Below are positions 516 to 32,000 of a stretch of 32,000 nucleotides of DNA, one piece after another (within the stretch, counting starts at the first letter, position 1; every line of letters starts with the position of its first letter). The notes beneath the pieces were generated by a model that worked only from the letters and a program-made list of their open reading frames with translations, was not told where the DNA came from and did no database searches. The DNA lies in contig CAZKBG010000001.1 of assembly GCA_964551375.1 (NCBI GenBank), positions 807,329 to 839,328 on the forward strand, given 5' to 3'. The stretch comes from an uncultured archaeon (GTDB lineage: Archaea; Iainarchaeota; Iainarchaeia; Iainarchaeales; JAAZKV01). Both the position numbers and the translations under genes were made by a program.

Positions 516-3500
516 ATGGATTTATCTGCAATAACAGAACCTTTCAAGAATTTCTATTACAAACTTGAAGACAAATGGTACGACTTTCTTGACTATTTGA
601 GCAACTATGTTCCAGTATACAAAGTAATTGACCCAATTGACAGCGTAGTGCCAAGCTTTGTAGTATTTTTGCTCGTTATATTATTTTTGATAGTGCTTGG
701 AGCATACTTGATGCAGTTTGGCTCAAATTATGAAATTGAATTCCACACAGTTGATTCAAAAACAAGCGCTGATTTAAGCGATGTTACAATTTACGGCGAA
801 ATAAACGCGGCTAATTTTGACGAAGTCACTGATGCTGAAGGAATGGCAATAGTCCGTCTTGACAGCGGAAGCAAGAACCTCTTTGACCAGATAGGTGAAA
901 TGATTTTCGGGGCAGAACCAGTCGAGTTTTATGCAATTGTTTCAGCGGAAAAAGCAGGATACAACAGCATTGCAGATAAAGAAGTTGACATTTCCACAAA
1001 AAGAGCAACAATCTCAATGGTGAAAAAAGATAGCACAGGCCCAAATGACCCAATACATCTTGAAGACGATTATCCAAACAGCACAAGAGTGACTTTAGTT
1101 GATTCGCTTACTGATGATCCAATAGTTGATAATACCGGAAGCGCATATGTAAGATTTAACTGCGCGAACAAAGCAACAGGCGCAAAAACCGCAAAAGATA
1201 TTGATGACGGCGACCTTGACGGAGTATTTTTGCTTAATTCAGAAAAATGCCAGTTTGTGGTAACAAATGCTTACACTACTGGATACGAGTCTCCAACAAA
1301 CCTTCCAAGAACTCTTCCTACTGCAATAAGCGAGCACAAAATCTCGATGTCAAAAATAAGATCGGCTCCAGGCGGAACAATAAAAGTATATGCTTATGAA
1401 AAAAATTCAAGCCCTGAAAAACCAATCCCAAGAGTTCAGGTAACTTTACTTGACAAATACAATATCAATGCAGGAAGAAAATTGACTGACAACAGCGGAG
1501 TTGCGGTATTTACTGACATTGATTCTGGAACTTACACAATAATTGCGGCAAGCCCCGACAGCAACTATGCATCAATACGCGTTGATGAAAATGTTTCAAT
1601 CACAGCAGTTGCAGGCGCTACAAGAGAAAAGAAAGTATACCTTGAAAGAATTGACCCAACTTTAGTAAGATTTGTTAAAGTACAGCTAAAGGACTCAAAC
1701 ACTTTAAGCATAATAAGAGACGCAAAAGCATTTGTTCAGGAAATAAGAAGATCAGGAAGCACATACTCGCTTGCCCCTCTTGCAGGATGCTTAAATGAAT
1801 GCATAAGCGACTCAAACGGAATAATAAAAGTAACAGGATTAATGAACGACGACGCAAACAAAGTTTTAATGATTGTGAATAAACCAGGGTATGTGATAAA
1901 AATATTCAAACCAATTCTGGTAAAATCAATCGACCCTCCGACAGTAGAATATCTTGAAGAAATTAACTCAACAAATTCAGGACAGGCAAGAGTGACAGTG
2001 AAAAGCTCTTCAAATAACGCTTTAATCGCAGGGGCAAAATCATTTTTGTATGTAAATCTTCTGGACCCAAGAGTTCAAAGAGTGCAGATTTTTGAAGACG
2101 GAATTTTGACTAATTCCGAAGGAATATCCATTTTCAACGGACTTCCAATAGGCGCTGATAAAAACTATGTTGCGAGAGCCACATATGACACGCTTGACTC
2201 AGGATACTCTGCAGGAAAGCAGATTTACGCAGGACAGACAACTGATTTTAATTTATCAATCGCGCTTGACGCTGCATTCATAAGGGTTCTACTGCTTGAC
2301 GCAAACACAAGACAAGTGATACCAACAAGAGCGGACGCAAACGTTGTTTTGTTTCCTGCAAACCGCCCAATGGATGTGCTTCATTATGATTCACAAACAA
2401 CAAGATTCATCAGCGCAATGTATCCAAGAGCAATAAGCTTTGTAGTTGCCGCTGATTTGAATAATTACGCGGGAGCAGTGCTTGAAATCCCCGCAGGAAA
2501 CTTGTCAAACGGAATAAATGACTTTAATGTAAGACTTTACCCGCTAAGCATGCTTGACAAAAATGTAAATATTTTCTTCAACGGATTTTACAGAAACAAT
2601 TACGAACTAATAAGGGGGATAAAAGCAAATTCAATTGAAACCACAAACCAGCATGATGACGGAACTTTCGGATATTATGAACAGATAGATGTTGTCGCAG
2701 GAAAAGATTTGAATTATTCAGATTTGTTTGGGGCGATAAGATTTAGCGACGCAATGAAAATAGTTGGAATTCCATTTAAAACAGGAATAAATTATCTTGA
2801 ATCAGGGTATTATTTATGCAGTCCTCCGATACAAAACCCGGTTAATTCTGATGAATTTTACATACAAACCGACTCAAACTGCCAGCGAAACGAGACAAAT
2901 CCAAACGGGGCAATGGCTGGAATACACTGGCAGCAGGGAATTTCGGCTCAAAGAGGATTAAAGAAAACAGTTTACACAATGGCTGTTAAAACAATTTTTG
3001 GAGATGTTAACGAAGGCACAATATTAAACCTAAAAGGATTTGGAAAAGAAAAACACAACACGCTTTCTTCAGAAGACAGATTTGACATAAGCTACCAATT
3101 AGGAACTCCAATAGGTCCAACAGACAACAATGCTGCAATTTCAATAATTGCTACCATGAACAGCGGGGCAATTACAAGAGATCCTGAAGGATTTATATAT
3201 AATCCAGCAAAAAAAACTTATCTTGAAGTTTCCCCAACTCAAACAAAAATAACCGCTTATCAAAGAAATAATCTTGGGATAAAAGTCAGAAATGACTCAA
3301 ATGTTCCAATTACAAACATAAAACTTTATGTTTACACATACAGCGGAATTATGGAAGAGTTTAATTACGTTCCAAGCGGAGCAATAAGGCTTGATAATGA
3401 AACAACAGGACTAAGGTCAAGATACGTTGCCACAATTTTAAATTTAAACAAAAACGCAATTTCCTCGCCGCAAACAGTTCCATTGTATTCATTAACTCCA

Positions 3501-5990
3501 AATTCAACAACAAAAGTAATCATAGTCGCAGCAGTTGAGGATAAAAATTATTTATTTGTTGCAGACACAAAAACAGTAGCGCTGAATTTGGTTCTTTCAG
3601 GCGCAAGATTCATGGCTGATGTTCAGGACCAGAACTTTGACGCAGAAGTATTCGCAGGAAACGGCAGAACTCCAGTTGCGCTTGAATCAGTTGACTTAAA
3701 AGCAGTGAGAAACTGCTCTAATACGCAAAACAGAGTTGTTGATTACAATAACTTACTTGCAGATATTGACCCAGTTAGGACAAATTACTTTGAAAGAACA
3801 ATACCTGGAATTTACAGAAAAGACGCTGACTGCCTTGTAGTGCACGTAGTTGCAGAAAGCCCTGATTATGATGATTTGACAAAAACAATATATGCTGGAT
3901 ATTCAGTTCTTCAGGACTTGACATTATCATGCGTTGACGCTTCATTCCCCGACGCATTTGGAGACAGCGACCTTGAAGAAATGACTGCTGAATGGGACAG
4001 CGAATTTGATGTAAGAGTAATAAACACCTGCGCAGGACCAATGCAGATAAGCGTTGAATCAGGATTAAACCAAGTATCAAATACATGCAATAATCTTGCC
4101 TCGCTTGCAGAATGCAACGTTAGATTAAAAGCGAGGAATAAATCATACAGCCCTACGGTAAAATACAGCGATATTTTGGGAGTTTTCCCTATTTACATTA
4201 AAGCGCGCGACGCGCAGACATCCAAAAAACTTGCGCTTGCGGATAAATTAAAAATTCACATCTCAAATTCTGCAGAATGCTTCCAAATAATACAAAAAGA
4301 TATTTACGAAGCAAATCCCCAGCCGTTTAAAGGAAGCATGATAATTAACAACAACTGCCAGAACACGCTTGTGGACGATTATTATGTTCCAAAAGAAGTG
4401 CTAAGCCTTGCGGGTGCGGATGTTAACACATTTGCTCCAAAATACCAGTCAGTTGATTTCAATTATGATTTAATAGTAAGGGGCGGAGGATACGATTACG
4501 GCACAACTCCAGTAACACGAATTGCAAATGTATTCTTCCCAGAACAGGGAGTAAATGGAAAACCAGTAATCGGAACAGGACCAAACGGCTACAATAAATA
4601 CGGACAGTTCAGATTCTCAATACCTAATTACAGCGGACAAACTGACTTGTTTTATTTCAGATGGTCGGATAGAAATGACGGCTCGAACAGATACGGCGCA
4701 GTGCTTGACAATACTATTACAGTAAATTATAGAGACGGAACACATCAGACTGTTCAAACAAATGTAGCGACTTTTGATATTAACACTCTTCCAATCGCAT
4801 GCAAATGCTACGGAACAAGATACAGCGGAGCTTCATGCTCTCAGGCAGTTCACACTGATGTAATATTTGGAAACGGAACATTTTCAGGAGAACACTGCAT
4901 GCTAATTTCAAACGATTTAGTAGTCGGTGTGCCTGATGGAGAAGGAATTGGTGGATTAATGTATGTCTACGTTCCAAGAGGAAATGTTGAATCATTTGAT
5001 TTTAATATTTACGGAAACCCAAATGCAACAAACTTGCGAATAAAGGGATACTCTTGGATAAGGTATACTGAAAATTTAACGACTATTACTCCAAACGGAA
5101 GCTCAAGCGCAGCTGTATTAAACAGCGGGGGATTCAGAATATATCCAGTTGAAGGATACACTTACATACTCAAAAACCTTGCAGACACTTCACTAAGCAA
5201 ACAGCTTGAAGAAAGAATACAACTCTGCAAAAAAGTTCAATCAGCAGACGCATGGTATTTCTTAGACCAGCTGTATTGGACAAAAAGATCAATAATGAAC
5301 TTTGATGAAGCAAAAGCATTCTGCTCGACTTCAGCAGGAGCAGGCATTGATTTGACAGGAACAACTCCAAGACTTGCAACCTCGGCTGATGTGAGCGCGC
5401 CAAGAAACCAATTCATAAGCGGCGATCCAAAACTATTATGGAACGCAAGCGACGGACAGGGCGGATGGGTAAACGGCGAAGGGGTAAAAGGATTTTGGCT
5501 TGACAACTGCCAAGGCGAATGGTGCTTCCCGTTAAGAAAACTTGACACAGCATATGCATACGTTGACAATAATGTTCATGCCGACATTGCAGAATATGTT
5601 CCTTTATGCACAGTAGAACTTGACAACACCCGCGAAGTTACATCAGCAATGTGCACAGCTCTTGGAATAACCTGCAACAAAGCATCAGGACAATGCGTAT
5701 TCCCAGATCCATCATCATTCACTTCATTTAACAGCAACGCTTACTTAAAAACTCCAAATCCTTTGGTTGAAGTTGTTATAAAATCAGTTCGCGCAAACGG
5801 AAGAGCGCTTGATCCTTCAACAGTAGTTGTGTGGCTTGAAGGAGGATTATTAAAAGCAAGATTTATCGGAGAGAATTACTCGCCATATGACGACCAGACA
5901 ATTGAATCGGATATTATTGCAAAAGATGTAAAGGGCGACCAGTACGGAACATTAACTGTTATAGATTATGTAAATAATCCGGAGGATTAG
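516..5990 (+). CDS. Giant (1824 aa) signal-anchored envelope protein with carboxypeptidase-regulatory-like beta-sandwich repeats and a Cys-bearing C-terminal half
   Basis: Uninterrupted 5475-nt ORF whose ATG is preceded by GTGG. The first ~46 aa have no signal peptide and are followed by one hydrophobic span, SFVVFLLVILFLIVLGAYLM (nt 654-713). Residues ~72-650 hold repeated modules with signatures such as TDAEGMAIVRL, TDNSGVAVFTDIDSGTYTI, SDSNGIIKVTGL and TNSEGISIFNGLP. I recognised no enzyme motif. Confidence 0.85.
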   Translation: MDLSAITEPFKNFYYKLEDKWYDFLDYLSNYVPVYKVIDPIDSVVPSFVVFLLVILFLIVLGAYLMQFGSNYEIEFHTVDSKTSADLSDVTIYGEINAANFDEVTDAEGMAIVRLDSGSKNLFDQIGEMIFGAEPVEFYAIVSAEKAGYNSIADKEVDISTKRATISMVKKDSTGPNDPIHLEDDYPNSTRVTLVDSLTDDPIVDNTGSAYVRFNCANKATGAKTAKDIDDGDLDGVFLLNSEKCQFVVTNAYTTGYESPTNLPRTLPTAISEHKISMSKIRSAPGGTIKVYAYEKNSSPEKPIPRVQVTLLDKYNINAGRKLTDNSGVAVFTDIDSGTYTIIAASPDSNYASIRVDENVSITAVAGATREKKVYLERIDPTLVRFVKVQLKDSNTLSIIRDAKAFVQEIRRSGSTYSLAPLAGCLNECISDSNGIIKVTGLMNDDANKVLMIVNKPGYVIKIFKPILVKSIDPPTVEYLEEINSTNSGQARVTVKSSSNNALIAGAKSFLYVNLLDPRVQRVQIFEDGILTNSEGISIFNGLPIGADKNYVARATYDTLDSGYSAGKQIYAGQTTDFNLSIALDAAFIRVLLLDANTRQVIPTRADANVVLFPANRPMDVLHYDSQTTRFISAMYPRAISFVVAADLNNYAGAVLEIPAGNLSNGINDFNVRLYPLSMLDKNVNIFFNGFYRNNYELIRGIKANSIETTNQHDDGTFGYYEQIDVVAGKDLNYSDLFGAIRFSDAMKIVGIPFKTGINYLESGYYLCSPPIQNPVNSDEFYIQTDSNCQRNETNPNGAMAGIHWQQGISAQRGLKKTVYTMAVKTIFGDVNEGTILNLKGFGKEKHNTLSSEDRFDISYQLGTPIGPTDNNAAISIIATMNSGAITRDPEGFIYNPAKKTYLEVSPTQTKITAYQRNNLGIKVRNDSNVPITNIKLYVYTYSGIMEEFNYVPSGAIRLDNETTGLRSRYVATILNLNKNAISSPQTVPLYSLTPNSTTKVIIVAAVEDKNYLFVADTKTVALNLVLSGARFMADVQDQNFDAEVFAGNGRTPVALESVDLKAVRNCSNTQNRVVDYNNLLADIDPVRTNYFERTIPGIYRKDADCLVVHVVAESPDYDDLTKTIYAGYSVLQDLTLSCVDASFPDAFGDSDLEEMTAEWDSEFDVRVINTCAGPMQISVESGLNQVSNTCNNLASLAECNVRLKARNKSYSPTVKYSDILGVFPIYIKARDAQTSKKLALADKLKIHISNSAECFQIIQKDIYEANPQPFKGSMIINNNCQNTLVDDYYVPKEVLSLAGADVNTFAPKYQSVDFNYDLIVRGGGYDYGTTPVTRIANVFFPEQGVNGKPVIGTGPNGYNKYGQFRFSIPNYSGQTDLFYFRWSDRNDGSNRYGAVLDNTITVNYRDGTHQTVQTNVATFDINTLPIACKCYGTRYSGASCSQAVHTDVIFGNGTFSGEHCMLISNDLVVGVPDGEGIGGLMYVYVPRGNVESFDFNIYGNPNATNLRIKGYSWIRYTENLTTITPNGSSSAAVLNSGGFRIYPVEGYTYILKNLADTSLSKQLEERIQLCKKVQSADAWYFLDQLYWTKRSIMNFDEAKAFCSTSAGAGIDLTGTTPRLATSADVSAPRNQFISGDPKLLWNASDGQGGWVNGEGVKGFWLDNCQGEWCFPLRKLDTAYAYVDNNVHADIAEYVPLCTVELDNTREVTSAMCTALGITCNKASGQCVFPDPSSFTSFNSNAYLKTPNPLVEVVIKSVRANGRALDPSTVVVWLEGGLLKARFIGENYSPYDDQTIESDIIAKDVKGDQYGTLTVIDYVNNPED

Positions 5991-6056
5991 AAATTTGAGA
6001 TTATTAAGTGATTTTTACTAAAGCAATTAATTAAAAGTAAAAATGTGGTTGTAATT

Positions 6057-7733
6057 ATGATGAAAAAAATAATAGTGCTGCTGTTTTTAGTAATGGCAGT
6101 ATCCTTGGCATTTTCTGCAGAAATTCCCGCAAGCGAAGTAGCGTGGAATGCTGGGCTTATATTAAAACTTGACAAACAAACATTTGCCCAAAACGAGCCA
6201 ATCACAGGCGAAATAACTATTGAAAACCGCGAAAATGCTCCTTTAGTAGGCGCAAAAGTTGTTTTGCAAATAGTTCAAGGAGAATATTTTTACCCTTCGC
6301 AGTACAATAATGCAGAAATTATACTTCACGAACAAGTAATTGATTTTAACTGGATGGTGCAGGGAAACAAAAAAACAATGAAATTCACAATGCCTGCCCA
6401 AAAATCAGGGGATTATAGAGTAGATGCATATGCATGGGCAGTTAAATCAAAAATGATTGGAGCAAGCAATATTTTATTAAATCCAATTTCATCAGTCTTT
6501 AGCATTCCTGGAGAAAAATATAAACGCCCGACAATATTTAGAGAAATTACTGTGTTCAACGGAACTGTTGGTCCTGTCGGATTTCCTGTTAAATCCCAAA
6601 CAGCAATAACAGGAGATGTTGTTCTTTCTGGGCTTTCAAATTTAGGATTTTCAAACCTTAAAGTCGGCGCAGTAATATGCGAATGGGCTACAGCTTTTTG
6701 CGACACTCAAAATGAAGTAAAAGCAGATTTTGGAGCTCCTGACTTAGGCGGCACAGCATACGCAAGATTAAATCTCACAGCTCCAAAAATTCCTTCAGCA
6801 TACGAAATACTATTCAAAGTATATTCAGGGGATGAAGTAATAGGAATGTACAAAAATAGGGCAATTGTAAGCGGACCAACTTCAAAAGCAAGAAAAATCC
6901 TAATAGAAGGGCTTGACAAAAGAAGCTACTCAATAAAGACTTATTTAGTAGGGACTCCAGACCACTTCGCAATGGAAAGCTTCACTGATTTTGACTTGAA
7001 AGTAAATGCTTACAAAGACGGAAACACAGTATTTTCAAAAACCGAAAGAATTCCTGTAATAAATTACGCTGATATATTCACAAAAACATATCCTGTCGGG
7101 AGAATATTCTTTGACAGTGTCTGCGTTACTGTTGAAAAAGACTCAACAGTGTTTGACAAAGAATGCTTTGACGCTCCGATGAAAGAAATACAGGCTGAAT
7201 ATGATTCGCTTTATCCAACCCCAGTAAGCGTTGAATGGAAATATTATCCGGAAAACGACGCGCTTGAAATAATGCTTGCAAAAGACGTGATTAACTCAAA
7301 AATAAGATTATTCTCAACCGACCAGATGTATATTGAAGAAATGGTGAATGAAACAGGATTTTACACAAAGACAATAACCGCTCCAAAAGAAAATATGACG
7401 CTTGCAGTTGATGATATTGACGCAAAACAACAGCAGGTATTCCAAATAAATTTAGGCCCTGCGGGAGACGAATTTGGAAACACTATTGTTGAAACCGGCG
7501 TAAAGCCAATCAGCGAATGCAAAGGACAAATCTGCTCAACAGGACTTGTGTGCAAATCGCAGCCAATTGCTTCAATAGAAGGCGAATGCTGCATGACTCA
7601 ATGCATAAGCGCAGGCGAAGTAACTCCTGAAGAAGGAAAAGAAATAATTCCATTAATAGTTCTAATTGCAATAATACTTGCAATAATTGCATTATTTGTT
7701 TTATACAAAGCGGCAAAGGTGGCGAGAAAATGA
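6057..7733 (+). CDS. Secreted envelope protein with a C-terminal Cys-rich stalk and membrane anchor (~558 aa)
   Basis: ATG ATG lies at 6057/6060, and the GTG at 6045 in the track is an alternative start. Sec-type signal peptide MMKKIIVLLFLVMAVSLAFSA. The C-terminus reads CKGQICSTGLVCKSQPIASIEGECCMTQC, then PEEG, a long hydrophobic span and the basic tail KAAKVARK. The stop codon overlaps the next gene's ATG. Confidence 0.85.
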   Translation: MMKKIIVLLFLVMAVSLAFSAEIPASEVAWNAGLILKLDKQTFAQNEPITGEITIENRENAPLVGAKVVLQIVQGEYFYPSQYNNAEIILHEQVIDFNWMVQGNKKTMKFTMPAQKSGDYRVDAYAWAVKSKMIGASNILLNPISSVFSIPGEKYKRPTIFREITVFNGTVGPVGFPVKSQTAITGDVVLSGLSNLGFSNLKVGAVICEWATAFCDTQNEVKADFGAPDLGGTAYARLNLTAPKIPSAYEILFKVYSGDEVIGMYKNRAIVSGPTSKARKILIEGLDKRSYSIKTYLVGTPDHFAMESFTDFDLKVNAYKDGNTVFSKTERIPVINYADIFTKTYPVGRIFFDSVCVTVEKDSTVFDKECFDAPMKEIQAEYDSLYPTPVSVEWKYYPENDALEIMLAKDVINSKIRLFSTDQMYIEEMVNETGFYTKTITAPKENMTLAVDDIDAKQQQVFQINLGPAGDEFGNTIVETGVKPISECKGQICSTGLVCKSQPIASIEGECCMTQCISAGEVTPEEGKEIIPLIVLIAIILAIIALFVLYKAAKVARK

Positions 7734-10264
7734 ATTCAAAATTATTAATCACCATTGCTTTAGCAATATGCTTACTCATTCCAACTGTATTTGCAGGAAC
7801 AACCCACTGCTGGAGACAAGAAATTGACAGGGGAGTTGGGGCAAATGAATTCATGATAGGGGACGCAAGCTTTGACGCAATATCAGGCGTGTGGATAGCA
7901 ACAATCGGAACAAGAATGGACTTAAACGGATTCGGCTCATTCCAGCTAAATTGCGATGACGGAGCAAGCGGAAGCGGAAAAAACTATGTTGATGTGCTTG
8001 ACGCAACAGACGGAAATATTGTTGCAACAAATGTGACAGGAAATTTAGGCCCTGCGGCAATATCGGGCGGATACTGCATGTATAACGGAAGCATTTGCTA
8101 CAAATACAAAGGCGCATTTTATCCAAGACATGGAGCATGCGATGCAGGAACCGATCCGGCAGTTGGAGCTGGAGAACTAGACGCAATGTCAATAGTGTTT
8201 GATGAAAACAGCGTAGGATATCATGAATATGTTGTGAGATACGGCGCGCTTTCACCAGCAACTGCGGACCCTTACTCGCCAAACTTGTGGATGCAGACAA
8301 TAAAAGTAATAAAAGTATTTGTCGGAATGCCAGGGCTATTAACATTCAACCAGCAGAGATTAAAAAGAATGGGCTATTATGACAAAGACGGCACTGCTGA
8401 AATTGATGTGATATTCACAGTTTTAAATAAATCCCCCTTCACTGCAAGAGTAACTAACTACAATATGGTGTGCAACGGAGAAGTAACTTGCGAACTTCCT
8501 CAAGTGGGCGGGCACCCAGAATATGTTGGATACACAATCAAAACAGACCAGCCGCTTGTAATTCCAGCAAAAGTAAAATTTAATAAAAGAACTACGCTTC
8601 CTGAAGATTTCTTCGCCTCGCTTGAAATGACTTACTCAATTGACGGGCTTGCAAAATGCGACCTTGCAACAGGCGCAGCAACATGCCAGACACGCTCTGC
8701 AGCAATGGAATACAAAATAGGGCTTTTAGACAAGCAGGATTTCCAGATAAATATACTTGGCTCTGAATCGGAAAGAGATTGCGTTGATGCTGAAGGAAAC
8801 CCTGGAAGAACAGGGCCAGAACTTGCGCCAAGAGTGAACTTATCCTTCAATCCTTCCACAGTAAGCTATGATTGTTCAAATATTAATCCAATAACAGGCG
8901 CAGATAATCCAAATTGGGTATACTGTTCTCAAAAAGAATTCTTAGTTCAGTTAAGCAGAAGAATCGGAGAAGGATGGATAAGACTTGGGAATATCAAAAT
9001 TTATGAAAAAGACGGCAACGCAGGCGCAGCGGATGCATTAAGAGTTGAAAATGGAAGAATACTAACATTCAATGCTTACTTAAGAGCGCAGGACATCTCA
9101 CGAGCTCAGGTATCGGCAAATGCTTCTCAATTTGGAACAGGATTATTAACTTCAGTAAATCTTCCAGGAACAGTATTTGATTCAGGCGCAACAGCGGTCG
9201 CAAGAATGAAAAACCTTGTTAATTCAATAAATTTCAAACAATCAATCGGCGGAGTAAGAGTGGATGAAACAATGCTTGAACCCGGAATGTACCAAGTTTC
9301 AATTGACATGAATGACATTGACCTTTCAAGCGCGGCAACTTCAACTTTATTCAAACCTGACGGCTCAATAAACCCTGCCGCAAACATAAAAGTAACTCTT
9401 GAAAAACAAACTCCTCCGGCATTTGACTGGTTCTTCTATTACGATGAAGATTCAGCATCAAGATTTGCGGGAAGCATATACGGAGGAGGCTCAACAGCAA
9501 CTACATTTAACAAAACAAATATACAAGACAGAGGGTTAATTGTTAATTTCACAAAATCAGGCTCATCAATGAGCGGGACTTTATACAAAACAATTGCAAT
9601 TCCTTTAATTGCAAGAATTGCAGACACAAACCTCCCAAGCGTTCCTCCTGCAAAGTTTGACGCACAGGGAAGCGGACTTGGACAGAGCAACTTTACTTAC
9701 TGGACAGGATTTGCAAGCTCACTTCCAGCAGGACCTCAAAGAGGATGCGAAACAATCAGCCTTACTCCTCCGCTTGGAAATAAAGCGCTGCCTTATAGAA
9801 TTGCAGATATAAATGCGGGATTAAACAATATTCAAACTAATATTCATAATTATACAATAGAAGAATTAGTTAACGTTGCGCCAAACAGCGTGATGTATCT
9901 TGAAACAGTTCTATATATGCCAGTGGGCTCGGGATTATGGATACAAGCGCCATTCAAAATATCAACGCTAAACGGAACAACAACAAGCACTCCTCAAAAT
10001 CCGCAGACATTAAATATTTCTCCAAGCGACCAAGCATGGGCAAGCGTGTTTAAGATTGACGGAACAAGCACAAACAACACGCTTGAAAATATATTTGACA
10101 AAATCGCAGACGGAAATGTGTGCGTAATAAGAGACACTTCACAAAGCGCGACAAACTGGAGACTATTCTGGAACCAAACTGCTGTACTTAACGCTCTAAA
10201 TCCAGTTAGAACTTCAATAAGAGATGCTAATTTATGCGCTGCAAGACAGCAATTATCAAGCTAA
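7730..10264 (+). CDS. Secreted 844-aa protein of unknown function, third gene of the envelope operon
   Basis: The ATG at 7730 overlaps the upstream TGA (ATGA at 7730-7733), which indicates translational coupling. Signal peptide MNSKLLITIALAICLLIPTVFA. No other hydrophobic span and no recognisable domain. Confidence 0.85.
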   Translation: MNSKLLITIALAICLLIPTVFAGTTHCWRQEIDRGVGANEFMIGDASFDAISGVWIATIGTRMDLNGFGSFQLNCDDGASGSGKNYVDVLDATDGNIVATNVTGNLGPAAISGGYCMYNGSICYKYKGAFYPRHGACDAGTDPAVGAGELDAMSIVFDENSVGYHEYVVRYGALSPATADPYSPNLWMQTIKVIKVFVGMPGLLTFNQQRLKRMGYYDKDGTAEIDVIFTVLNKSPFTARVTNYNMVCNGEVTCELPQVGGHPEYVGYTIKTDQPLVIPAKVKFNKRTTLPEDFFASLEMTYSIDGLAKCDLATGAATCQTRSAAMEYKIGLLDKQDFQINILGSESERDCVDAEGNPGRTGPELAPRVNLSFNPSTVSYDCSNINPITGADNPNWVYCSQKEFLVQLSRRIGEGWIRLGNIKIYEKDGNAGAADALRVENGRILTFNAYLRAQDISRAQVSANASQFGTGLLTSVNLPGTVFDSGATAVARMKNLVNSINFKQSIGGVRVDETMLEPGMYQVSIDMNDIDLSSAATSTLFKPDGSINPAANIKVTLEKQTPPAFDWFFYYDEDSASRFAGSIYGGGSTATTFNKTNIQDRGLIVNFTKSGSSMSGTLYKTIAIPLIARIADTNLPSVPPAKFDAQGSGLGQSNFTYWTGFASSLPAGPQRGCETISLTPPLGNKALPYRIADINAGLNNIQTNIHNYTIEELVNVAPNSVMYLETVLYMPVGSGLWIQAPFKISTLNGTTTSTPQNPQTLNISPSDQAWASVFKIDGTSTNNTLENIFDKIADGNVCVIRDTSQSATNWRLFWNQTAVLNALNPVRTSIRDANLCAARQQLSS

Positions 10265-13069: not shown

Positions 13070-14866
13070 ATGCAAAGCTTGAGAAAAAAATCAACTGCCC
13101 AAGGAACAATAGAATACTTAGTAATTATGGCAATAGTAATAGTAATTGCGCTTGTGCTTGTGGGAATATTAAGCGGATTTTTTGGAGGAAGCGGAGAATC
13201 AACTGGGTTTAATGCGGTTGATGTCGGAAACAAAACTAACTCAGGAGTGGCAATACTTGAAACAGTAGCTGATTCAGAAGGAGATTCGCTTGTAAGACTC
13301 ACTAATAATTCAGGGGACACAATTACAATAAACAAAGTGACTACCACAGGCGGAGAAAACAGCTTTAATGAAACACTTCCCGCAAACACTGAAAGAACAT
13401 TTTCTTTAAACGACTTTGATTTAAGCTGCCCATGCGACGGACAAAGTGTCAAAAAAATCTGTGAGTTTACAATTCAATACACTAACCAATACGGGCTTGA
13501 AAAAAGCCAAAATGTGCGAGCAGTAGTTGACTGCGTTAATGACGCCCGCGCAGGAGGAAATACTCCTGTTGCTGGACTTGGAAGCGGAACTCTATCTGAT
13601 CCTTGGATAATAAATTCCTGTGCTGAACTTCAAGACATGAATAACCATTTAGACGGCAACTATGCGCTTGGCGGTAATATTAACTGCGCAGATTCGCTTA
13701 CATGGAACAATGGAGCAGGATTCAGTCCAATAGGATTTACAACAACAAACGGAGCAGGATGTCCGCCAGATTCAGCGCCATTTTGGGACTTATGCCTAAC
13801 TCCTGACACACAATACTTTAACGGAACACTTGACGGAAAAGGATTTACAATAAGCAATTTTTACATAAACCGCCTTGATGAAAATTTTGTAGGACTATTC
13901 AAAGTGCTTGGAGATACTGCGAGAATAACAAATCTAAATTTTACAGGAGCAAATGTAACAGGCGGAAGCGAAGTCGGAACAATTGCGGGAATGAATTACA
14001 GCGGGTATGCTGAAAGAGTAATTGTAAACGGAGATATTAACGGCGGAGCGTATGTCGGAGGATTATTCGGAAGCGCAGCAGTGAATTCAGACACAAACAA
14101 AAGCGCATCAATTTATCTCTCTGGAACAAGCGGAAAAGTCAACGGCGGGTATAGAGTCGGATGCCTTGTAGGAAACGGACACTCTTTCACAATTGATAAA
14201 TCATATTCAACCTGTGATGTAAACGCGGTTGTGGAAGCAGGAGGGCTAGTTGGAACAGTGTGGTATAATACAGTGATTACACGAAGCTATGCGACAGGAA
14301 ATGCAACTGCAGACCAAACATTAGCAGGAGGACTTGCCTCAGCATCAAATGGGACAATCAGAGACTGCTATGCGACAGGAAATGTAATAGCACTATCAGG
14401 AGCTGGCGGATTAATGGGCGGAGGAGGAGCACTAGTAATGAATAGTTATGCTACAGGCACAGTAACTTCACCACGCGCAACAGGAGGGCTAATTGGAGAT
14501 ACAATCGGGGCGATAGTAAATTCATTTGCAACAGGGCGTGTTACGGGAGATGCAAATGTTGGCGGAGTAGCAGGAGTAGTATGGGATGCATGGTGTCAAT
14601 ATGATGAAAATGTAAACTGGTCAACAACTAATACAACAATGCCAGACGCATATGGCGCATGGTATGCAAATCACGCGGGCGGATGCGGAATAAATAATTA
14701 CACACACGCGGTTGGGGTAAATAATCCTGACGGCAATTATGAATACTGGTATAATCCAACAAATACTCCTTTGCAATATTGGGGCGGATTTGGCTCGGAT
14801 AAGAACTGGAATATTTGCTCAGGGCAGGGCTTTCCTTGGCTGTCATGGGAAAACAGAACCTGCTGA
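13070..14866 (+). CDS. Class III signal peptide (archaeal type IV pilin-like) protein fused to a GLUG-repeat beta-helix adhesin domain, 598 aa
   Basis: The N-terminus MQSLRKKSTAQGTIEYLVIMAIVIVIALVLVGIL matches the class III signal pattern (basic n-region, then Q-x-[ST]-x-E-x-x-x-hydrophobic, then a hydrophobic helix). Residues ~170-270, GSGTLSDPWIINSCAELQDMNNHLDGNYAL...FNGTLDGKGFTISNF, form the usual lead-in to GLUG repeats. Residues 273-510 carry about 8-9 GLUG-type repeats. The C-terminus is an aromatic/Asn-rich cap ending GQGFPWLSWE. Confidence 0.85.
   Translation: MQSLRKKSTAQGTIEYLVIMAIVIVIALVLVGILSGFFGGSGESTGFNAVDVGNKTNSGVAILETVADSEGDSLVRLTNNSGDTITINKVTTTGGENSFNETLPANTERTFSLNDFDLSCPCDGQSVKKICEFTIQYTNQYGLEKSQNVRAVVDCVNDARAGGNTPVAGLGSGTLSDPWIINSCAELQDMNNHLDGNYALGGNINCADSLTWNNGAGFSPIGFTTTNGAGCPPDSAPFWDLCLTPDTQYFNGTLDGKGFTISNFYINRLDENFVGLFKVLGDTARITNLNFTGANVTGGSEVGTIAGMNYSGYAERVIVNGDINGGAYVGGLFGSAAVNSDTNKSASIYLSGTSGKVNGGYRVGCLVGNGHSFTIDKSYSTCDVNAVVEAGGLVGTVWYNTVITRSYATGNATADQTLAGGLASASNGTIRDCYATGNVIALSGAGGLMGGGGALVMNSYATGTVTSPRATGGLIGDTIGAIVNSFATGRVTGDANVGGVAGVVWDAWCQYDENVNWSTTNTTMPDAYGAWYANHAGGCGINNYTHAVGVNNPDGNYEYWYNPTNTPLQYWGGFGSDKNWNICSGQGFPWLSWENRTC
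13886..14599 (+). repeat. GLUG-type repeats (about 8-9 units of ~26-30 aa) within the pilin-like adhesin
   Basis: Recurrent units include VGGLFGSAAV..., AGGLVGTVWYNTVITRSYATGNATADQT, LAGGLASASNGTIRDCYATGNVIALSG, AGGLMGGGGALVMNSYATGTVTSPRA, TGGLIGDTIGAIVNSFATGRVTGDAN and VGGVAGV. Confidence 0.8.
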
Positions 14867-25319: not shown

Positions 25320-25865
25320 TCACCAAGGAACCTTTTTCAGCTTCCAAATATAAGCAAGCCAGTTAGTGAACCTATGAATAAAGAAAGTCGCAATCAAAAG
25401 AACAATCACAATCCAATACGCAGGAAGCACCACAATACAGGACAATACCAAACCGCCCAAAATAAAGTCAAGCTGGTCAGCAAGATCCCACTTCTCTCCG
25501 CTTTTGATTCCAAATCTTCTCTTAAAGAAACTCTTAACCAAATCCCCCAAAATTGCTCCAAGAGAAAGGTAAAACGCAAGCTCAATATAATTAGGAATCA
25601 AAGTTAAAAGATGAGGCGAAACTAAAACAAGAATTGCCGCGATTAAAGTTCCGCTCGTAATTCCAGCAAGAGTGCCGATAATTGTTTTTCCTTTCCCAAA
25701 AAGAGGCTTTTCCCAGAGTTTTTTATTCAAATCAAGAGGAGTTTTGCCATGAATTACAACAGGAATTGAATTAGCAACATAAAGAGGAATTGCATAAAGC
25801 AAAATAAGCGTGATTGGATTGATAAGGCTAACAAGAGTTGGAATAATCAGGTCAATTGAACTCAT
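25320..25865 (-). CDS. carS: CDP-archaeol synthase (CDP-2,3-bis-O-geranylgeranyl-sn-glycerol synthase, DUF46)
   Basis: IPLYVANSIPVVIHGKTPLDLNKKLWEKPLFGKGKTIIGTLAG is the characteristic CarS N-terminal motif block, and the protein is about 180 aa with multiple TM spans. The ATG at 25865 is preceded by GTGG; the GTG at 25874 is the alternative start. Confidence 0.85.
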   Translation of the reverse strand: MSSIDLIIPTLVSLINPITLILLYAIPLYVANSIPVVIHGKTPLDLNKKLWEKPLFGKGKTIIGTLAGITSGTLIAAILVLVSPHLLTLIPNYIELAFYLSLGAILGDLVKSFFKRRFGIKSGEKWDLADQLDFILGGLVLSCIVVLPAYWIVIVLLIATFFIHRFTNWLAYIWKLKKVPW

Positions 25866-25893
25866 CAAAACCACTTTACAGAACTAAACTTAG

Positions 25894-26595
25894 TCAGATT
25901 AATAAGCCAAGCAGTATGCAAAAAACGGCTCCAGCAGTAGAGCCGATTAAATTAACCTGTGTTTTATCAAGCAAGTGCTTTGTTTCAAACAACCCGCCGA
26001 AAATTGAATCAACATTTGAGCCAACTAATCCCGCAAGAAGAACTACAATAGTTCCCCAAATATTTTGATAAGCAAAAAAGTAAATAAATGCAATTACAAT
26101 TCCGCCAAAGAGAGCTGCTCCTTCCCCCAGCATTGTAACTCCGCCATCAGTGCCTTTAGGGCACGGCTTAAGAGTAGTAATCATCACAGGCTTCTTCTTT
26201 GAATAATAACCGATTTCTGAAGACAAAGTATCAGCTAAAGCTGCTGAGATTGCCCCAAAGAACCCAAGCTCAAGAAGCACGGCATAATCCGGAAAGATTA
26301 AAATTAGTATAAGCATTGCAAGCGCGGGAAGAGAATTCCCAATAACATTCATAATATTTCTCTGCTCGTGCTTTTTTCTTGGGAAATTACTTGCAATTTC
26401 TCCAATCACAAAAAAAACAACAACAGAGCCAAGGTCAATTAGTGGATTAGGGCCAAAAGTAATCGCCGCAAGTCCCACAGCATTTGCGATTAAAACTCCC
26501 TCAAAATCAAGGAGCTTTTTTCTATAAGAAAAGAGCGAAAAAACAAAGAGGAAAACAAGAATAATCCCTAACTGAAAAGGATCATTAATTGCCAT
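25894..26595 (-). CDS. DUF92/TMEM19-family integral membrane protein (TIGR00297-like)
   Basis: GAISAALADTLSSEIG and PCPKGTDGGVTMLGEGAALFGG match the conserved DUF92 blocks (ADT..SE.G and GT.GG.S..G). The protein has about 7 hydrophobic spans. Confidence 0.8.
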   Translation of the reverse strand: MAINDPFQLGIILVFLFVFSLFSYRKKLLDFEGVLIANAVGLAAITFGPNPLIDLGSVVVFFVIGEIASNFPRKKHEQRNIMNVIGNSLPALAMLILILIFPDYAVLLELGFFGAISAALADTLSSEIGYYSKKKPVMITTLKPCPKGTDGGVTMLGEGAALFGGIVIAFIYFFAYQNIWGTIVVLLAGLVGSNVDSIFGGLFETKHLLDKTQVNLIGSTAGAVFCILLGLLI

Positions 26596-28627: not shown

Positions 28628-31600
28628 TTAATTCCTTCTTTTTGATAGTAATCCAACAACAATTGCGAGAGCTGCAATTATTACAATTATGCCGTTATCA
28701 GGAACGCTTTTAGTAGGAGTTTCCTGATTGTAATTAATGAACTCAACTTTCTCGCAAACAGTGCAGTTTGGAGCATCAGGCTTAATATTAGCAGTAACTC
28801 TAATCACAGTTCCGTCAACAAAAGGAACAAGAGGAATTAAAGTTGAAGTAATTGGATTAACGTTGCAATCAACTTTTGAATTAGCAGGAGAACTTACTAA
28901 TAACTGAACAGGAATTGCTTCTGAAAAGTTCTCAAACTTCATAGTAGATTTTGCGTACTTTGTGCAAACAAGAGTAACTACAACATTTCCATCAACTATT
29001 TTTGCATCAAGAGAAACAATTGAATTAACATCAGAAGACACCGGCGGATAGCCTTTCTTAAAACAAGCTTTTAGAATTCCATTAGTTGAGCAAGGATAAG
29101 AAGTTTGGTACAAATTAGGGTAAGTAATTCCAGTCGCAAGGCAATTCATATCAAGTTCAGGACAAATCATGTCGCTGACATTAACAAGCACATCATCAGA
29201 GCGAACTTGATAAGCGTCATCATTCACAGTAAGTCTTAATGCTTTGATTCCATTAGCATCAATTCCAAGGCAATAAACTTTTGGAGTTAAAGTAGTTGAA
29301 TCAAATATAGCGCAAGTTGAAGTAGGACTTGGGCTTGGAGTAACAAAGCTCCAATTAATGACAAAAGGAGCAAGTCCGCCGTTAATTATTCCGATTAATG
29401 AAATATTTTGGTCTACAAATCCTGCCGCATCAGGCCCTGCTGAAATTGAAAACGGAGCAATTGTGGGATAAGTTACTACAATATTTACATCATCATTTGC
29501 AAAAGTTCTGCCGTCATTTACAGTAAATCTTACAGTCGCAGTTTTTGGTCCGCTCATGGCTGCGTCAATATCGCACCTAAATGTCGGTGTGAGAGTAGTT
29601 GCATTAGTAAGAGTGCACTTAGGATTAGTTGTGTTAACATCTTTTGTTATTACCCAGTTGTAAGTATAAATTCCTCTTCCTCCAAGCGCGCTTCCGTTTA
29701 AGACTTCATTATATCTTGTCGCAATTGACTTATCAGGTCCTGCGTTAGCTGATAAGTTAATTCTTATATTTGAAGAACAAACCGCGCTTTCACCAGCAAC
29801 ATTTCCAGTAATTAAAACAGAAATATTTCCGTCATTTTTGTGATAAGGGCATCTCATCAAAAATGTTGTTCCAACTGGAGTAGTGTTTCTAAATTCAGCA
29901 TCAATTGTAGTTAGTGAATAACATTTGGAATTAATGTTTGAAGAAGCAACTGGAGCTCCTGCAAAGTAAGAAGCTGTAACATTAAAGTCAATATTTGAGT
30001 CATATGCTGAAGTAATAGTTCCAGCAGGAAGAACTGTGCAGGCAGGACCAAGAACCAAAGTTAAAGTAAAAGCAGTCCAAGCAGATTTTAAGTGAGTGAA
30101 ATTATCTTCAGCCCTTACTCTGAAAGTTTTTGCTCCCGCAGTAGTCCAAGTATAAGTTCCCGTTCCAATAGTTGCGCTTGGAATATAATTAAGCGGAACA
30201 TTCTCATCGGAAATTCCGTCATTGTTCCAATCAACCTGATACTTGATTAAATCCCCTTCAGGATCAACCGAATTAAAATCAAAAGACTGCATACTATTTA
30301 CGCTTGCAGTTCCAGGAGTAGTTCTAACAACAGTAGGCGCGCTGGGAGCAAGATTTGGGTTTAAATTAATTGCGCGGGCAGTGCAAGCTTTTGTTTGAGA
30401 AGAACTTGCAATAGTAGCTCCAACGCTTAAACTTTGAACAGCTGAAACAGTATACGCGCACTGCGCAGTGCACAAACCTGAATAAGGAAGAGTGTTTTGA
30501 TTAACGCAAGTTAAAGGAGCAGTTGTAGCATTACCGCACGAAACCGAATCAACACCCGCAAGAGATGGATCCGCCTGAAAATCATTAAAATCAACAGTTA
30601 TTGTTGAATTCCCGCTAACTCTTCTTGGATTTGGGTTAATTTGAATAACTCTGCAGGTTGGAACAGGAATTGTTCTAACAGTTGCAGTATCTGATGCAGT
30701 TTCGCCAAGCGAATCAGTCACAGTAACTGAAAGAGTGGTGTCAGTGTAAATATTTGAACAACTTATAGTTGGAGTTGCTGTGTTTTGATTTGTTAAAGTA
30801 CAATTTCCAGCATTATTTGTAATAGCCCAATTCCAAGAAGTAATTGTTCCTCCGCCAGCTCTAGTTGCAGTCAAAGTAGTTGGAGTTCCAATAGTGTGAG
30901 TATAAGGTCCCCCCGCATCAACAGAAAGATTGGCAACAATGTTAATCGGACAATTAGCCCAAAGCGCAGAGTATTGTCCTGACTGGGATTGGGACATTAC
31001 TTTAATAGTTTTTGCTCCGACAGTAGTCCAGCTGTGCTGAGCATTAACAGTTGTTCCGCTCGCAACATAACCAGAAGCAGGAAACCATTCTTCAACAGTA
31101 TTTCCGCCATTCCAATTTACCCCATATCTTAAATTTTCATTATCAGTCCCAGTAAAACTAAATGCATAATTATTATTTGCAAGTCCTATTGAAGTGCAGC
31201 TTAAAGTTGGAGTATTGGGATATGGATTTGGCGCAGTAGGATTACAGCAAATTTCACCAGTAGTATAATCACAAATACCAAAAAGGTTTGGAGTTCCAGG
31301 ATAGCATAAATAATCTCCTAGCCCTCCAACCCCATTTACCCAATAAGGATTAATGAAAGGAGTTACAGGAGTGATTTGAGTAGGGAAACCCATTGTGCAA
31401 GTTCCTCCATAAGTAAAGCAAGTCAACTGCTGACCGCAGCAAGATTTTCCTGGAGCGCAAGTTCCGCTTCCAGTGGCATATTGAGGCAATCCCATATTGC
31501 AGGGCATCATATTGCAAGTCTGGCTCATATTTTGAGTGCATGTGTATGTTGCGCCGCAGCATGACTGTCCTATCCCGCATGTTCCGCTGCCATCAGCTCT

Positions 31601-32000
31601 GTTTATATTGCTGCAAGGCCCTCCATAAACACAATCCTGCATTACATTCTGCTCGCAAGTGTATTGCGGACCGCAGCAACTCTGCATTGTAGGACAAGTC
31701 CCATAAGCATCAGGGCGGTTATTTGAAGAACATAATCCTGTTGTGCAAACATTTGAACCGGTGCAGGTGTAAGGAGCGCCACAGCAGGATTGTCCCATTG
31801 CGCATGTTCCGCTGTAATTATCTGGACGGTTATTCATAGAGCAGCTTCCGCTCATGCACGTTCCGCCATAATTAGAGCAGGTATAACTTGGCTGTTCGCA
31901 ACAGCGATAAGATTCATTTGGCCAACTGTCTCCGGGCCCTGCGCAGTTTCCCCAATAACTCCAACCATAAGGACAGGAGTACATGCACTGGTCTCCGCCA
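28628..32000 (-). CDS. Giant C-terminally anchored surface protein (N-terminus outside the window) with six-Cys tandem repeats, PKD-like modules and a P-D-N-G + TM + KRRN tail
   Basis: The frame stays open beyond the track's M at 31984 up to the window edge (upstream codons read GGDQC). More than 1120 aa are visible. The C-terminus is VPDNGIIVIIAALAIVVGLLSKRRN. Confidence 0.88.
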   Translation of the reverse strand, partial: GGDQCMYSCPYGWSYWGNCAGPGDSWPNESYRCCEQPSYTCSNYGGTCMSGSCSMNNRPDNYSGTCAMGQSCCGAPYTCTGSNVCTTGLCSSNNRPDAYGTCPTMQSCCGPQYTCEQNVMQDCVYGGPCSNINRADGSGTCGIGQSCCGATYTCTQNMSQTCNMMPCNMGLPQYATGSGTCAPGKSCCGQQLTCFTYGGTCTMGFPTQITPVTPFINPYWVNGVGGLGDYLCYPGTPNLFGICDYTTGEICCNPTAPNPYPNTPTLSCTSIGLANNNYAFSFTGTDNENLRYGVNWNGGNTVEEWFPASGYVASGTTVNAQHSWTTVGAKTIKVMSQSQSGQYSALWANCPINIVANLSVDAGGPYTHTIGTPTTLTATRAGGGTITSWNWAITNNAGNCTLTNQNTATPTISCSNIYTDTTLSVTVTDSLGETASDTATVRTIPVPTCRVIQINPNPRRVSGNSTITVDFNDFQADPSLAGVDSVSCGNATTAPLTCVNQNTLPYSGLCTAQCAYTVSAVQSLSVGATIASSSQTKACTARAINLNPNLAPSAPTVVRTTPGTASVNSMQSFDFNSVDPEGDLIKYQVDWNNDGISDENVPLNYIPSATIGTGTYTWTTAGAKTFRVRAEDNFTHLKSAWTAFTLTLVLGPACTVLPAGTITSAYDSNIDFNVTASYFAGAPVASSNINSKCYSLTTIDAEFRNTTPVGTTFLMRCPYHKNDGNISVLITGNVAGESAVCSSNIRINLSANAGPDKSIATRYNEVLNGSALGGRGIYTYNWVITKDVNTTNPKCTLTNATTLTPTFRCDIDAAMSGPKTATVRFTVNDGRTFANDDVNIVVTYPTIAPFSISAGPDAAGFVDQNISLIGIINGGLAPFVINWSFVTPSPSPTSTCAIFDSTTLTPKVYCLGIDANGIKALRLTVNDDAYQVRSDDVLVNVSDMICPELDMNCLATGITYPNLYQTSYPCSTNGILKACFKKGYPPVSSDVNSIVSLDAKIVDGNVVVTLVCTKYAKSTMKFENFSEAIPVQLLVSSPANSKVDCNVNPITSTLIPLVPFVDGTVIRVTANIKPDAPNCTVCEKVEFINYNQETPTKSVPDNGIIVIIAALAIVVGLLSKRRN
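29174..31171 (-). other. Array of five PKD-like beta-sandwich modules of two kinds, separated by Cys-containing Ig-like spacers (approximate bounds)
   Basis: Kind 1 is exemplified by FSFTGTDNENLRYGVNWNGG...HSWTTVGAKTIKV and FDFNSVDPEGDLIKYQVDWNNDG...YTWTTAGAKTFRVRAED. Kind 2 is exemplified by LSVDAGGPYTHTIG..., LSANAGPDKSIATRYNEVLNGS...YTYNWVI and ISAGPDAAGFVDQNISL... Confidence 0.7.
31427..31885 (-). repeat. Four complete tandem 36-40 aa six-cysteine repeats, flanked by degenerate copies
   Basis: Each unit fits Y-T-C-x(5-7)-C-x(4-5)-C-x(11-13)-C-x5-C-C-G. Examples are YTCSNYGGTCMSGSCSMNNRPDNYSGTCAMGQSCCG and YTCTGSNVCTTGLCSSNNRPDAYGTCPTMQSCCG. Similarity is also visible at DNA level (shared ...GCATGTTCCGCTG... 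on the plus strand near 31575 and 31805). Confidence 0.85.

Follow-up and report, generated by a model that had tools for sequence, protein, structure and literature searches.

Beta-defensins share a six-cysteine framework of the form C-x(4-8)-C-x(3-5)-C-x(9-13)-C-x(4-7)-CC or, with other loop bounds, C-x(4-7)-C-x(3-6)-C-x(8-16)-C-x(5-13)-CC, and two domains of the beta-defensin fold stand in tandem in the tick carboxypeptidase inhibitor. The double-domain beta-defensin AvBD11 likewise shows that units of this type can be concatenated in one chain (PMC9138766). The disulfides of beta-defensins pair 1-5, 2-4 and 3-6, and the trans-defensins (alpha-, beta- and big defensins) are described as having emerged and evolved in animals alone (PMC7203481); from bacteria, only cis-defensins have been reported (PMC11561630). 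Our literature searches for beta-defensin-like domains in archaea or other prokaryotes found nothing relevant. Here we describe a surface-protein gene at the end of a 32,000-nucleotide stretch of DNA from an uncultured archaeon (hereafter the window; G000:C1:807329-839328 of a genome of 1.09 Mb that is 93% complete). Directly behind its signal peptide the protein carries an array of six tandem cysteine-rich units, and the four canonical ones satisfy the beta-defensin framework.

The canonical units have loops of 5-7, 4-5, 11-13, 5 and 0 residues, the same order of loop lengths as in the beta-defensins of vertebrates and in the C-terminal domain of big defensins (PF00711, PF13841; human beta-defensin-1 or hBD-1, 2nlp/1IJV; 7lzl), and they end on the same terminal CC. 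They also share the G-x-C before the fourth cysteine (C4) and a length of about 35-40 residues, and they are predicted to form a small antiparallel sheet with the CC on its last strand. Unlike the animal beta-defensins, which are free processed peptides and strongly cationic, the archaeal units stand in tandem, tethered in an anchored protein, and are neutral to acidic. AvBD11 and the tick inhibitor differ in another way, as they have two units instead of six and are free soluble animal proteins with neither stalk nor anchor. What we observe looks or works like a beta-defensin-type disulfide mini-domain that is used as a module of a surface protein.

The minus-strand frame 28628..31999 is open up to the window edge, as an earlier note on this DNA had recognized from the ORF (open reading frame) list and its translation. 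That note took the array to belong to a giant protein and to continue past the edge, with possibly more copies upstream, and it advised obtaining the upstream sequence. We fetched the flanking genome and found that only 27 codons lie beyond the edge, encoding MQKFFGWAFILAIFCITFIPSAMA and then YCV, which defines the full array and its signal peptide and leaves no room for further copies. The predicted start codon is at window coordinate 32080 (L002:4409), and the complete ORF (L002:957-4409) encodes a product, P0002, of 1150 residues, hardly a giant. The stretch MQKFFGWAFILAIFCITFIPSAMA has the usual look of a Sec signal peptide, with a cleavage site of the A-x-A kind, and YCV is the start of unit 0. 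The predicted cleavage site is AMA/YC in the window protein and VGA/YC and TSA/YC in its two orthologues. The NCBI gene call (P0003, 921 residues) starts at the internal Met230 and therefore lacks the signal peptide and nearly the whole array (codons 1-229, window 31313-32000 and on past the edge). The Logan call is the full 1150-residue form, which both orthologues also support. The public annotation that starts at Met230 thus loses the cysteine array, which matters in practice for annotation.

The array is complete in residues 25-282 of P0002 and holds 36 cysteines. Four canonical units, at residues 68-100, 106-136, 142-175 and 181-215 of P0002, fit the pattern C-x5-7-C-x4-5-C-x11-13-C-x5-CC-G, and are flanked by two variant units (0 and 5) that also carry six cysteines each. 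When the 258 residues of the array were shuffled 20000 times, the canonical pattern occurred 0.015 times on average and at most twice, against the four occurrences observed, and the unit pattern proposed in the earlier note is borne out in this respect. Unit 0 aligns cysteine for cysteine with the canonical units and has an 8-residue insert between C4 and C5, and in unit 5 a 30-residue insert separates C2 from C3; both orthologues keep this insert together with the six cysteines. The units are mini-domains of 36-65 residues, joined by short linkers (G-A-P, G-P-Q, G-A-T and G-Q-Q), and cysteine makes up 14% of the array. In the window protein the net charge is -3 to +1 per unit and -7 for the whole array; over 45 units of the wider family the mean net charge is -1.3. 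The modal loops across the 40 complete family units are 7 / 3-4 / 11 / 5 / 0.

Two orthologues allowed us to examine how the array is conserved. One is in a genome of the same genus (G004; CAZJAE010000022.1, 'uncultured archaeon isolate binchicken_co115_24') and is 73% identical over the array, and the other (P0004, 1162 residues) is on JGI/ENA metagenome contigs. All 36 cysteines and the order of the six units are kept in the three proteins, which establishes the array as real and tandem, as the earlier note had held. Within this trio each unit has well-conserved loops, for example in the N-N-R-P-D segment, and the comparison of the window protein with the G004 orthologue points to coding constraint (pN 0.21 versus pS 0.66). 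The G004 orthologue (L008 55-2403, minus strand; also L012) matches the window protein along the array and the first PKD region, its C-terminal third diverges, and the fetched ORF ends at 782 residues without a hydrophobic anchor.

The same comparison dates the array. Each unit is 79-90% identical to its orthologous unit and 41-58% identical to its neighbours. Between units of the window gene the pairwise nucleotide identity is 45-54%, and of 108 comparisons in which two units have the same amino acid, 55 show the same codon, where codon usage alone predicts 56. Tandem Repeats Finder found nothing in the array DNA. Synonymous sites between units are fully randomised, and no repeat signal is left at the DNA level. 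Because orthologous units are closer than neighbouring ones, codon choice is random and the DNA holds no repeat, the unit duplications predate these species. The expansion of the array is therefore old, and the DNA-level similarity and recent expansion that the earlier note had seen are ruled out by the codon comparison and the Tandem Repeats Finder result.

Three routes of comparison lead to beta-defensins and to no other family, each of them at scores below threshold. Among Pfam families, Defensin_beta (PF00711) is the best for unit 1, where it covers positions 2-35 of the 36 in the profile (E 0.0096-0.011, 16.2-16.4 bits). It is also the best for unit 1 of the G004 protein; the two orthologous units score E 0.0096-0.026 and 15-16.4 bits with near-full profile coverage. 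We further built a profile (A6) of 28 units from six genomes and searched it against 177,635 distinct PDB sequences. At E<=10 it retrieved three chains, all of them defensins with the six cysteines and the G-x-C aligned: avian beta-defensin 3 (7lzl_A, E 0.028), a human beta-defensin (6mjv_A, E 0.072) and Defensin-BvL (2mn3_A, E 2.2). No knottin, EGF, conotoxin or other six-cysteine family was among these matches. A narrow profile of four units (A1) matched no relevant PDB sequence.

For the fold, unit 3 was modelled by AlphaFold2 with a 15-row alignment of units (A5). The model has a mean predicted local distance difference test (pLDDT) score of 79.8, with strands at 3-5, 10-14, 27-29 and 34-38 and a short helix at 18-21. 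A single-sequence AlphaFold2 run on residues 28-300 gave pLDDT 35 and an unusable model. The earlier note had proposed Foldseek on a single unit, and the search of the unit 3 model against 350,542 PDB chains returned one match only, human beta-defensin-1 (2nlp_A), a weak one (E 6.9; template modelling (TM) scores 0.40/0.43; root-mean-square deviation 3.1 Å over 31 columns; 32% identity). No fold match for the unit model was found in BFVD. The match of the canonical units to the beta-defensin framework is clear from their spacing, and the similarity is not at a level that establishes family membership or homology.

Other small cysteine-rich modules compare less well. EGF modules lack a terminal CC and are wired 1-3, 2-4, 5-6, hevein has eight cysteines with an internal CC, and the inhibitor cystine knot follows C-C-CC-C-C. 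The archaeal module resembles the EGF-like repeats of eukaryotic extracellular proteins in being a small six-cysteine module that is used, alone or as an array, between the Ig-like or PKD-like domains of surface proteins, but it has a terminal CC and other spacing, and one unit gave a weak EGF match (E 0.05-0.3) far below threshold. The earlier note had also been reminded of knottin, hevein and carbohydrate-binding (CBM) modules. Neither Chitin_bind_1 nor CBM_14 matches any of the 28 units at E<=10, a single CBM_1 match in Pfam is at chance level (E 2.5), and the CC is terminal, not central; we reject a hevein, CBM or knottin identity on these grounds. The note had further judged that the spacing fits no family it could name. 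This holds for catalogued families, since no Pfam family is above threshold for any unit and NCBIfam has no model for the array, but not for the spacing itself, which is that of the beta-defensin framework.

The pattern of cysteine loss in the family bears on the pairing. The six cysteines are complete in 40 of 45 units from 11 family proteins, and only two units are truly deficient (P0006 residues 151-183 and P0008 residues 203-236). Each of these lacks C3 and C6 together, with C6 replaced by tyrosine. The joint loss supports disulfide pairing in general and a C3-C6 bond in particular, and may be regarded as a natural double mutant; it excludes the alpha-defensin wiring. Each unit probably contains three disulfides, for a total of 18 in the array.

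An enzyme that could introduce them is encoded in the same genome, as a DsbA-like protein that has the active site CPFC and a lipobox-like signal, LLGC (G000:C1:240506-240967; L013 1426-2118, minus strand). DsbA-like genes are found in 139 of the 215 species-level genomes of the phylum, all of about 1 Mb, and in 52 of its 58 high-quality genomes; they are too common for their phylum-wide co-occurrence with the module to be informative, and we set it aside. Within the genus, strong matches (E<1e-20) are confined to four of 22 genomes, which include both that carry the array, a suggestive co-occurrence among few and related genomes. The P0004 contig encodes a 520-residue protein with Thioredoxin_4/DSBA domains (601 residues in the ENA copy; L010 4174-5736, minus strand) about 2 kb upstream of the array gene.

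The module is rare. A profile search found no second copy in the source genome, and by a broad profile the module occurs in six of the 215 phylum genomes, namely two of the 22 of the same genus and four of 23 of another family in the same order. In public data it amounts to five protein clusters. Public protein collections contain P0004, P0005 (VVB98785.1, 'Calx-beta domain protein [uncultured archaeon]'), P0006 and P0008. The narrow A1 profile found three proteins only among 1.84 billion representatives, a number too low for the family, as the 25-30 bits or so that a single-copy module scores are not enough for significance in so large a library; a scan of genome contigs with A1 found nothing. 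The search of metagenomes for the repeat pattern, also suggested in the earlier note, was carried out with a hand-made degenerate DNA pattern (G-T-C-x5-C-C-G-x2-[YF]-T-C) and recovered one contig, apparently of the P0004 population. We found the module always in large secreted multidomain proteins, next to PKD, Calx-beta or Big_7 domains, and all of these proteins end in a motif like V/I-P-[ED]-x-x-P, a helix and a basic tail. The contig contexts are archaeal; that of P0006, for example, carries RNA polymerase A, L7Ae, S12, S7 and EF-2. The array is N-terminal in the window protein, G004, P0004 and P0008, and in P0005, P0006 and ORFs of three further genomes (G150, G141 and G156) one module or a few stand between other domains. 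Across this wider family only the cysteines, glycine and one aromatic residue are conserved. Taken together, the family is rare, archaeal and uncatalogued. On two of these contigs we also noted genes of the PIN_2 and RHH_12 families, as a toxin-antitoxin pair directly upstream of the P0006 gene (L035 7248-7884) and about 8 kb upstream on the P0004 contig (L010 1-300). The elongation factor 2 gene of the P0006 contig contains an intein with a LAGLIDADG endonuclease domain (L035 3504-7232).

The array is carried by a stalk of about 870 residues that is anchored and conserved together with it. K319L-like PKD domains (PF22352) are found in two stretches of the stalk at 38.8-39 bits, above the cut-off of 27. 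With PKD domains above threshold, a predicted signal peptide and a putative membrane anchor, the window protein reads as a PKD surface protein. The N-terminal Sec signal, the PKD-rich body and the C-terminal helix with its KRRN tail agree with the earlier note, which had the protein anchored by its C-terminus and the array at the membrane-distal end. The anchor has the three-part layout of exosortase/archaeosortase sorting signals, and the relatives have VPEIPP, IPDNEP or VPEMPE in the same place, with a helix and a basic tail behind it. Among the CTERM models of NCBIfam, none matches this C-terminal signal.

A gene of the archaeosortase family is nearby. Its 182-residue product scores 36-38 bits with TIGR04178 (exo_archaeo; cut-off 23) and 34.3 bits with PF09721 (cut-off 25.7). 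The best subtype is archaeosortase D (ArtD), below its cut-off, and no subtype cut-off is passed. Because this gene lies 3.3 kb away, the anchor may be processed and lipid-linked, with the 182-residue protein as the candidate processing enzyme; a second exo_archaeo copy above the cut-off is at G000:C2:51185-51451. The Sec signal, the Ig-like/PKD stalk, the three-part C-terminus and the nearby archaeosortase-family gene are all familiar from archaeal PKD surface proteins with PGF-CTERM/ArtA-type signals (reviewed in PMC6098224). Unlike in those systems, the VPDNG or VPEIPP motif fits no catalogued CTERM model and the sortase is small. To our knowledge, a cysteine-module head has not been described for PKD surface proteins of the archaeosortase type.

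We favour, at a probability of roughly 0.55, the reading that the six mini-domains of beta-defensin framework form a tethered binding or adhesion head on an anchored, stalked surface protein. The 1150-residue protein would be secreted by the Sec pathway of this small-genome (DPANN-type) archaeon and held by its C-terminus in the membrane or, once an archaeosortase has processed it, on a lipid. Each unit would most likely adopt a fold of beta-defensin type, a small sheet of three strands, the DsbA-like protein described above, a secreted oxidoreductase, could form the disulfides, and the array would then be a compact, protease-resistant head on a PKD-type stalk that binds or adheres to a partner cell or surface. 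The units are unlikely to act as membrane-active antimicrobial peptides, because they are neutral to acidic and covalently tethered.

Several results weigh against this reading, or at least against the part of it that concerns beta-defensins. The best PF00711 score, 16.4 bits, does not reach the family cut-off of 21, and this family matches only two of the 28 units (E 0.011-0.026) and none of the others. The two beta-defensins found by the PDB search are below threshold (E 0.03-0.07), the Foldseek match to 2nlp_A has a probability of 0.07, and VKOR and DsbB, the partners sought for the DsbA-like protein, were not found. The similarity scores are dominated by the aligned cysteines, and AlphaFold may reproduce a fold that it has learned for this cysteine spacing, so the model does not count as evidence separate from that pattern. 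The knottin wiring (1-4, 2-5, 3-6) and that of beta-defensins account equally well for the paired loss of C3 and C6, and the deficient units of P0006 and P0008 may descend from one ancestral loss. The sub-threshold, cysteine-driven scores and the fit to the knottin wiring, with the low TM-scores and the animal-only origin ascribed to trans-defensins (PMC7203481), make it a serious possibility, if somewhat short of even odds, that the framework arose by convergence in an unrelated, undescribed archaeal mini-domain with another fold or wiring, for example a knottin-like one. Against convergence, the PDB profile search retrieved defensins and no other six-cysteine family, the sole structural match is again a beta-defensin, and the defensin consensus has the same conserved G-x-C ahead of C4 and the same CC at its end. 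That the units are genuine beta-defensin-fold domains of trans-defensin type, with 1-5, 2-4, 3-6 wiring, in Archaea is a doubtful proposition that we put forward tentatively.

The role of the array can be questioned independently of its fold. It may be a passive structural element, a rigid disulfide-stapled spacer with no binding specificity of its own that leaves binding to the PKD or other domains, as the single modules between PKD and Calx-beta domains in P0005, P0006, G150, G141 and G156, a position typical of linkers, and the wide variation of the loops across the family would suggest. We consider this rather unlikely, since in four proteins the array is at the distal end, directly behind the signal peptide, and the unit-by-unit conservation of loops in the orthologue trio suggests more than a scaffold. 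A polyprotein precursor, cut apart to release defensin-like antimicrobial or toxin peptides against competitors or a host, would account for tandem units of one framework with short linkers, which resemble multi-copy peptide precursors, and for a framework that is that of host-defence peptides. The units, however, do not have the cationic charge of defensins, recurring cleavage motifs, dibasic or other, are absent between them, the array is fused to, and conserved with, its anchored stalk, and the module is also found singly inside other large proteins. Release of peptides is thus highly improbable, and a tethered head or a rigid stabilised tip is favoured over it by the charge, the lack of cleavage motifs and the conserved fusion. 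The cysteines might instead hold Zn, Fe-S or Cu in an extracellular metal or redox module, an idea to which the high cysteine content and the anoxic waters in which DPANN archaea often live, where disulfides are less favoured, lend some appeal, and single units do give Fer4 and zinc-finger matches (E 0.013-0.04, one unit each). These matches are at chance level, no Fe-S or zinc model rises above noise for this spacing, and there are no histidine or CxxC motifs. The even number of cysteines per unit, the loss of C3 and C6 as a pair and the secreted DsbA-like oxidoreductase, here and in most high-quality genomes of the phylum, likewise speak for disulfides. We therefore reject Fe-S or zinc binding and regard metal binding as a whole as very unlikely.

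Table 1. Features of the surface-protein gene and the archaeosortase-family gene (window coordinates; residue numbers refer to P0002)
Feature	Coordinates	Strand	Basis or description
Surface protein coding sequence, 1150 residues	28628..32000, +80 bases past window edge	-	ORF list, translation, flanking genome
Unit 0, variant, residues 25-64 (cysteine span 26-61), first three residues beyond edge	31889..32000	-	C-x5-C-x3-C-x9-C-x13-CC
Unit 1, canonical, residues 65-102, loops 6/4/12/5	31775..31888	-	Pattern match; sub-threshold PF00711
Unit 2, canonical, residues 103-138, loops 5/4/11/5	31667..31774	-	Pattern match
Unit 3, canonical, residues 139-177, loops 7/5/11/5	31550..31666	-	Pattern match; unit used for modelling
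Unit 4, canonical, residues 178-217, loops 7/4/13/5	31430..31549	-	Pattern match
Unit 5, variant, residues 218-282 (cysteine span 221-279)	31235..31429	-	C-x6-C-x30-C-x10-C-x7-CC
Stalk, PKD-type and other beta-rich domains	28703..31234	-	Pfam PF22352
C-terminal anchor (putative): VPDNG, hydrophobic helix of about 16 residues, KRRN	28631..28702	-	Sequence
Archaeosortase-family gene, 182 residues	24764..25312	-	TIGR04178 and PF09721; 3.3 kb from surface-protein gene

The archaeosortase-family gene is directly beside carS (CDP-archaeol synthase, 25320-25874), with DUF92 at 25894-26595, and the further neighbours are Bud32, the ribosomal proteins S15 and S3Ae and lipoprotein-like ORFs; the identity of these genes rules out a dedicated disulfide operon beside the array gene. 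Immediately upstream are two genes for small, lipobox-like secreted proteins (L002 4517-5095, plus strand; 5118-5636, minus strand), which have no Pfam match and are syntenic in G004 (L008 2501-3076 and 3138-3656). Elsewhere in the window (516-10264 and 13070-14866, plus strand) there are large, mostly unannotated ORFs of 1824 residues with an Ig-like domain, 562 and 844 residues, and a 598-residue GLUG-motif protein, probably other surface proteins. Between them are genes for DNA polymerase D subunits, Cdc6/Orc1, a NOG1-like GTPase and SecD/SecF.

The presence of a beta-defensin framework in archaea would either push the origin of the fold far back or provide a clean case of a convergent disulfide framework. 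If the units are genuine beta-defensin-fold domains, the fold would be far older than animals, or would have been transferred to or from archaea, or would have been invented twice down to the G-x-C and the CC, and its primordial role would have been that of a tethered binding module, not of an antimicrobial peptide. The module is a small target that can be expressed for structural and binding studies. With it, the little-understood surface proteins that are thought to mediate the cell contacts of small-genome archaea gain an uncatalogued domain.

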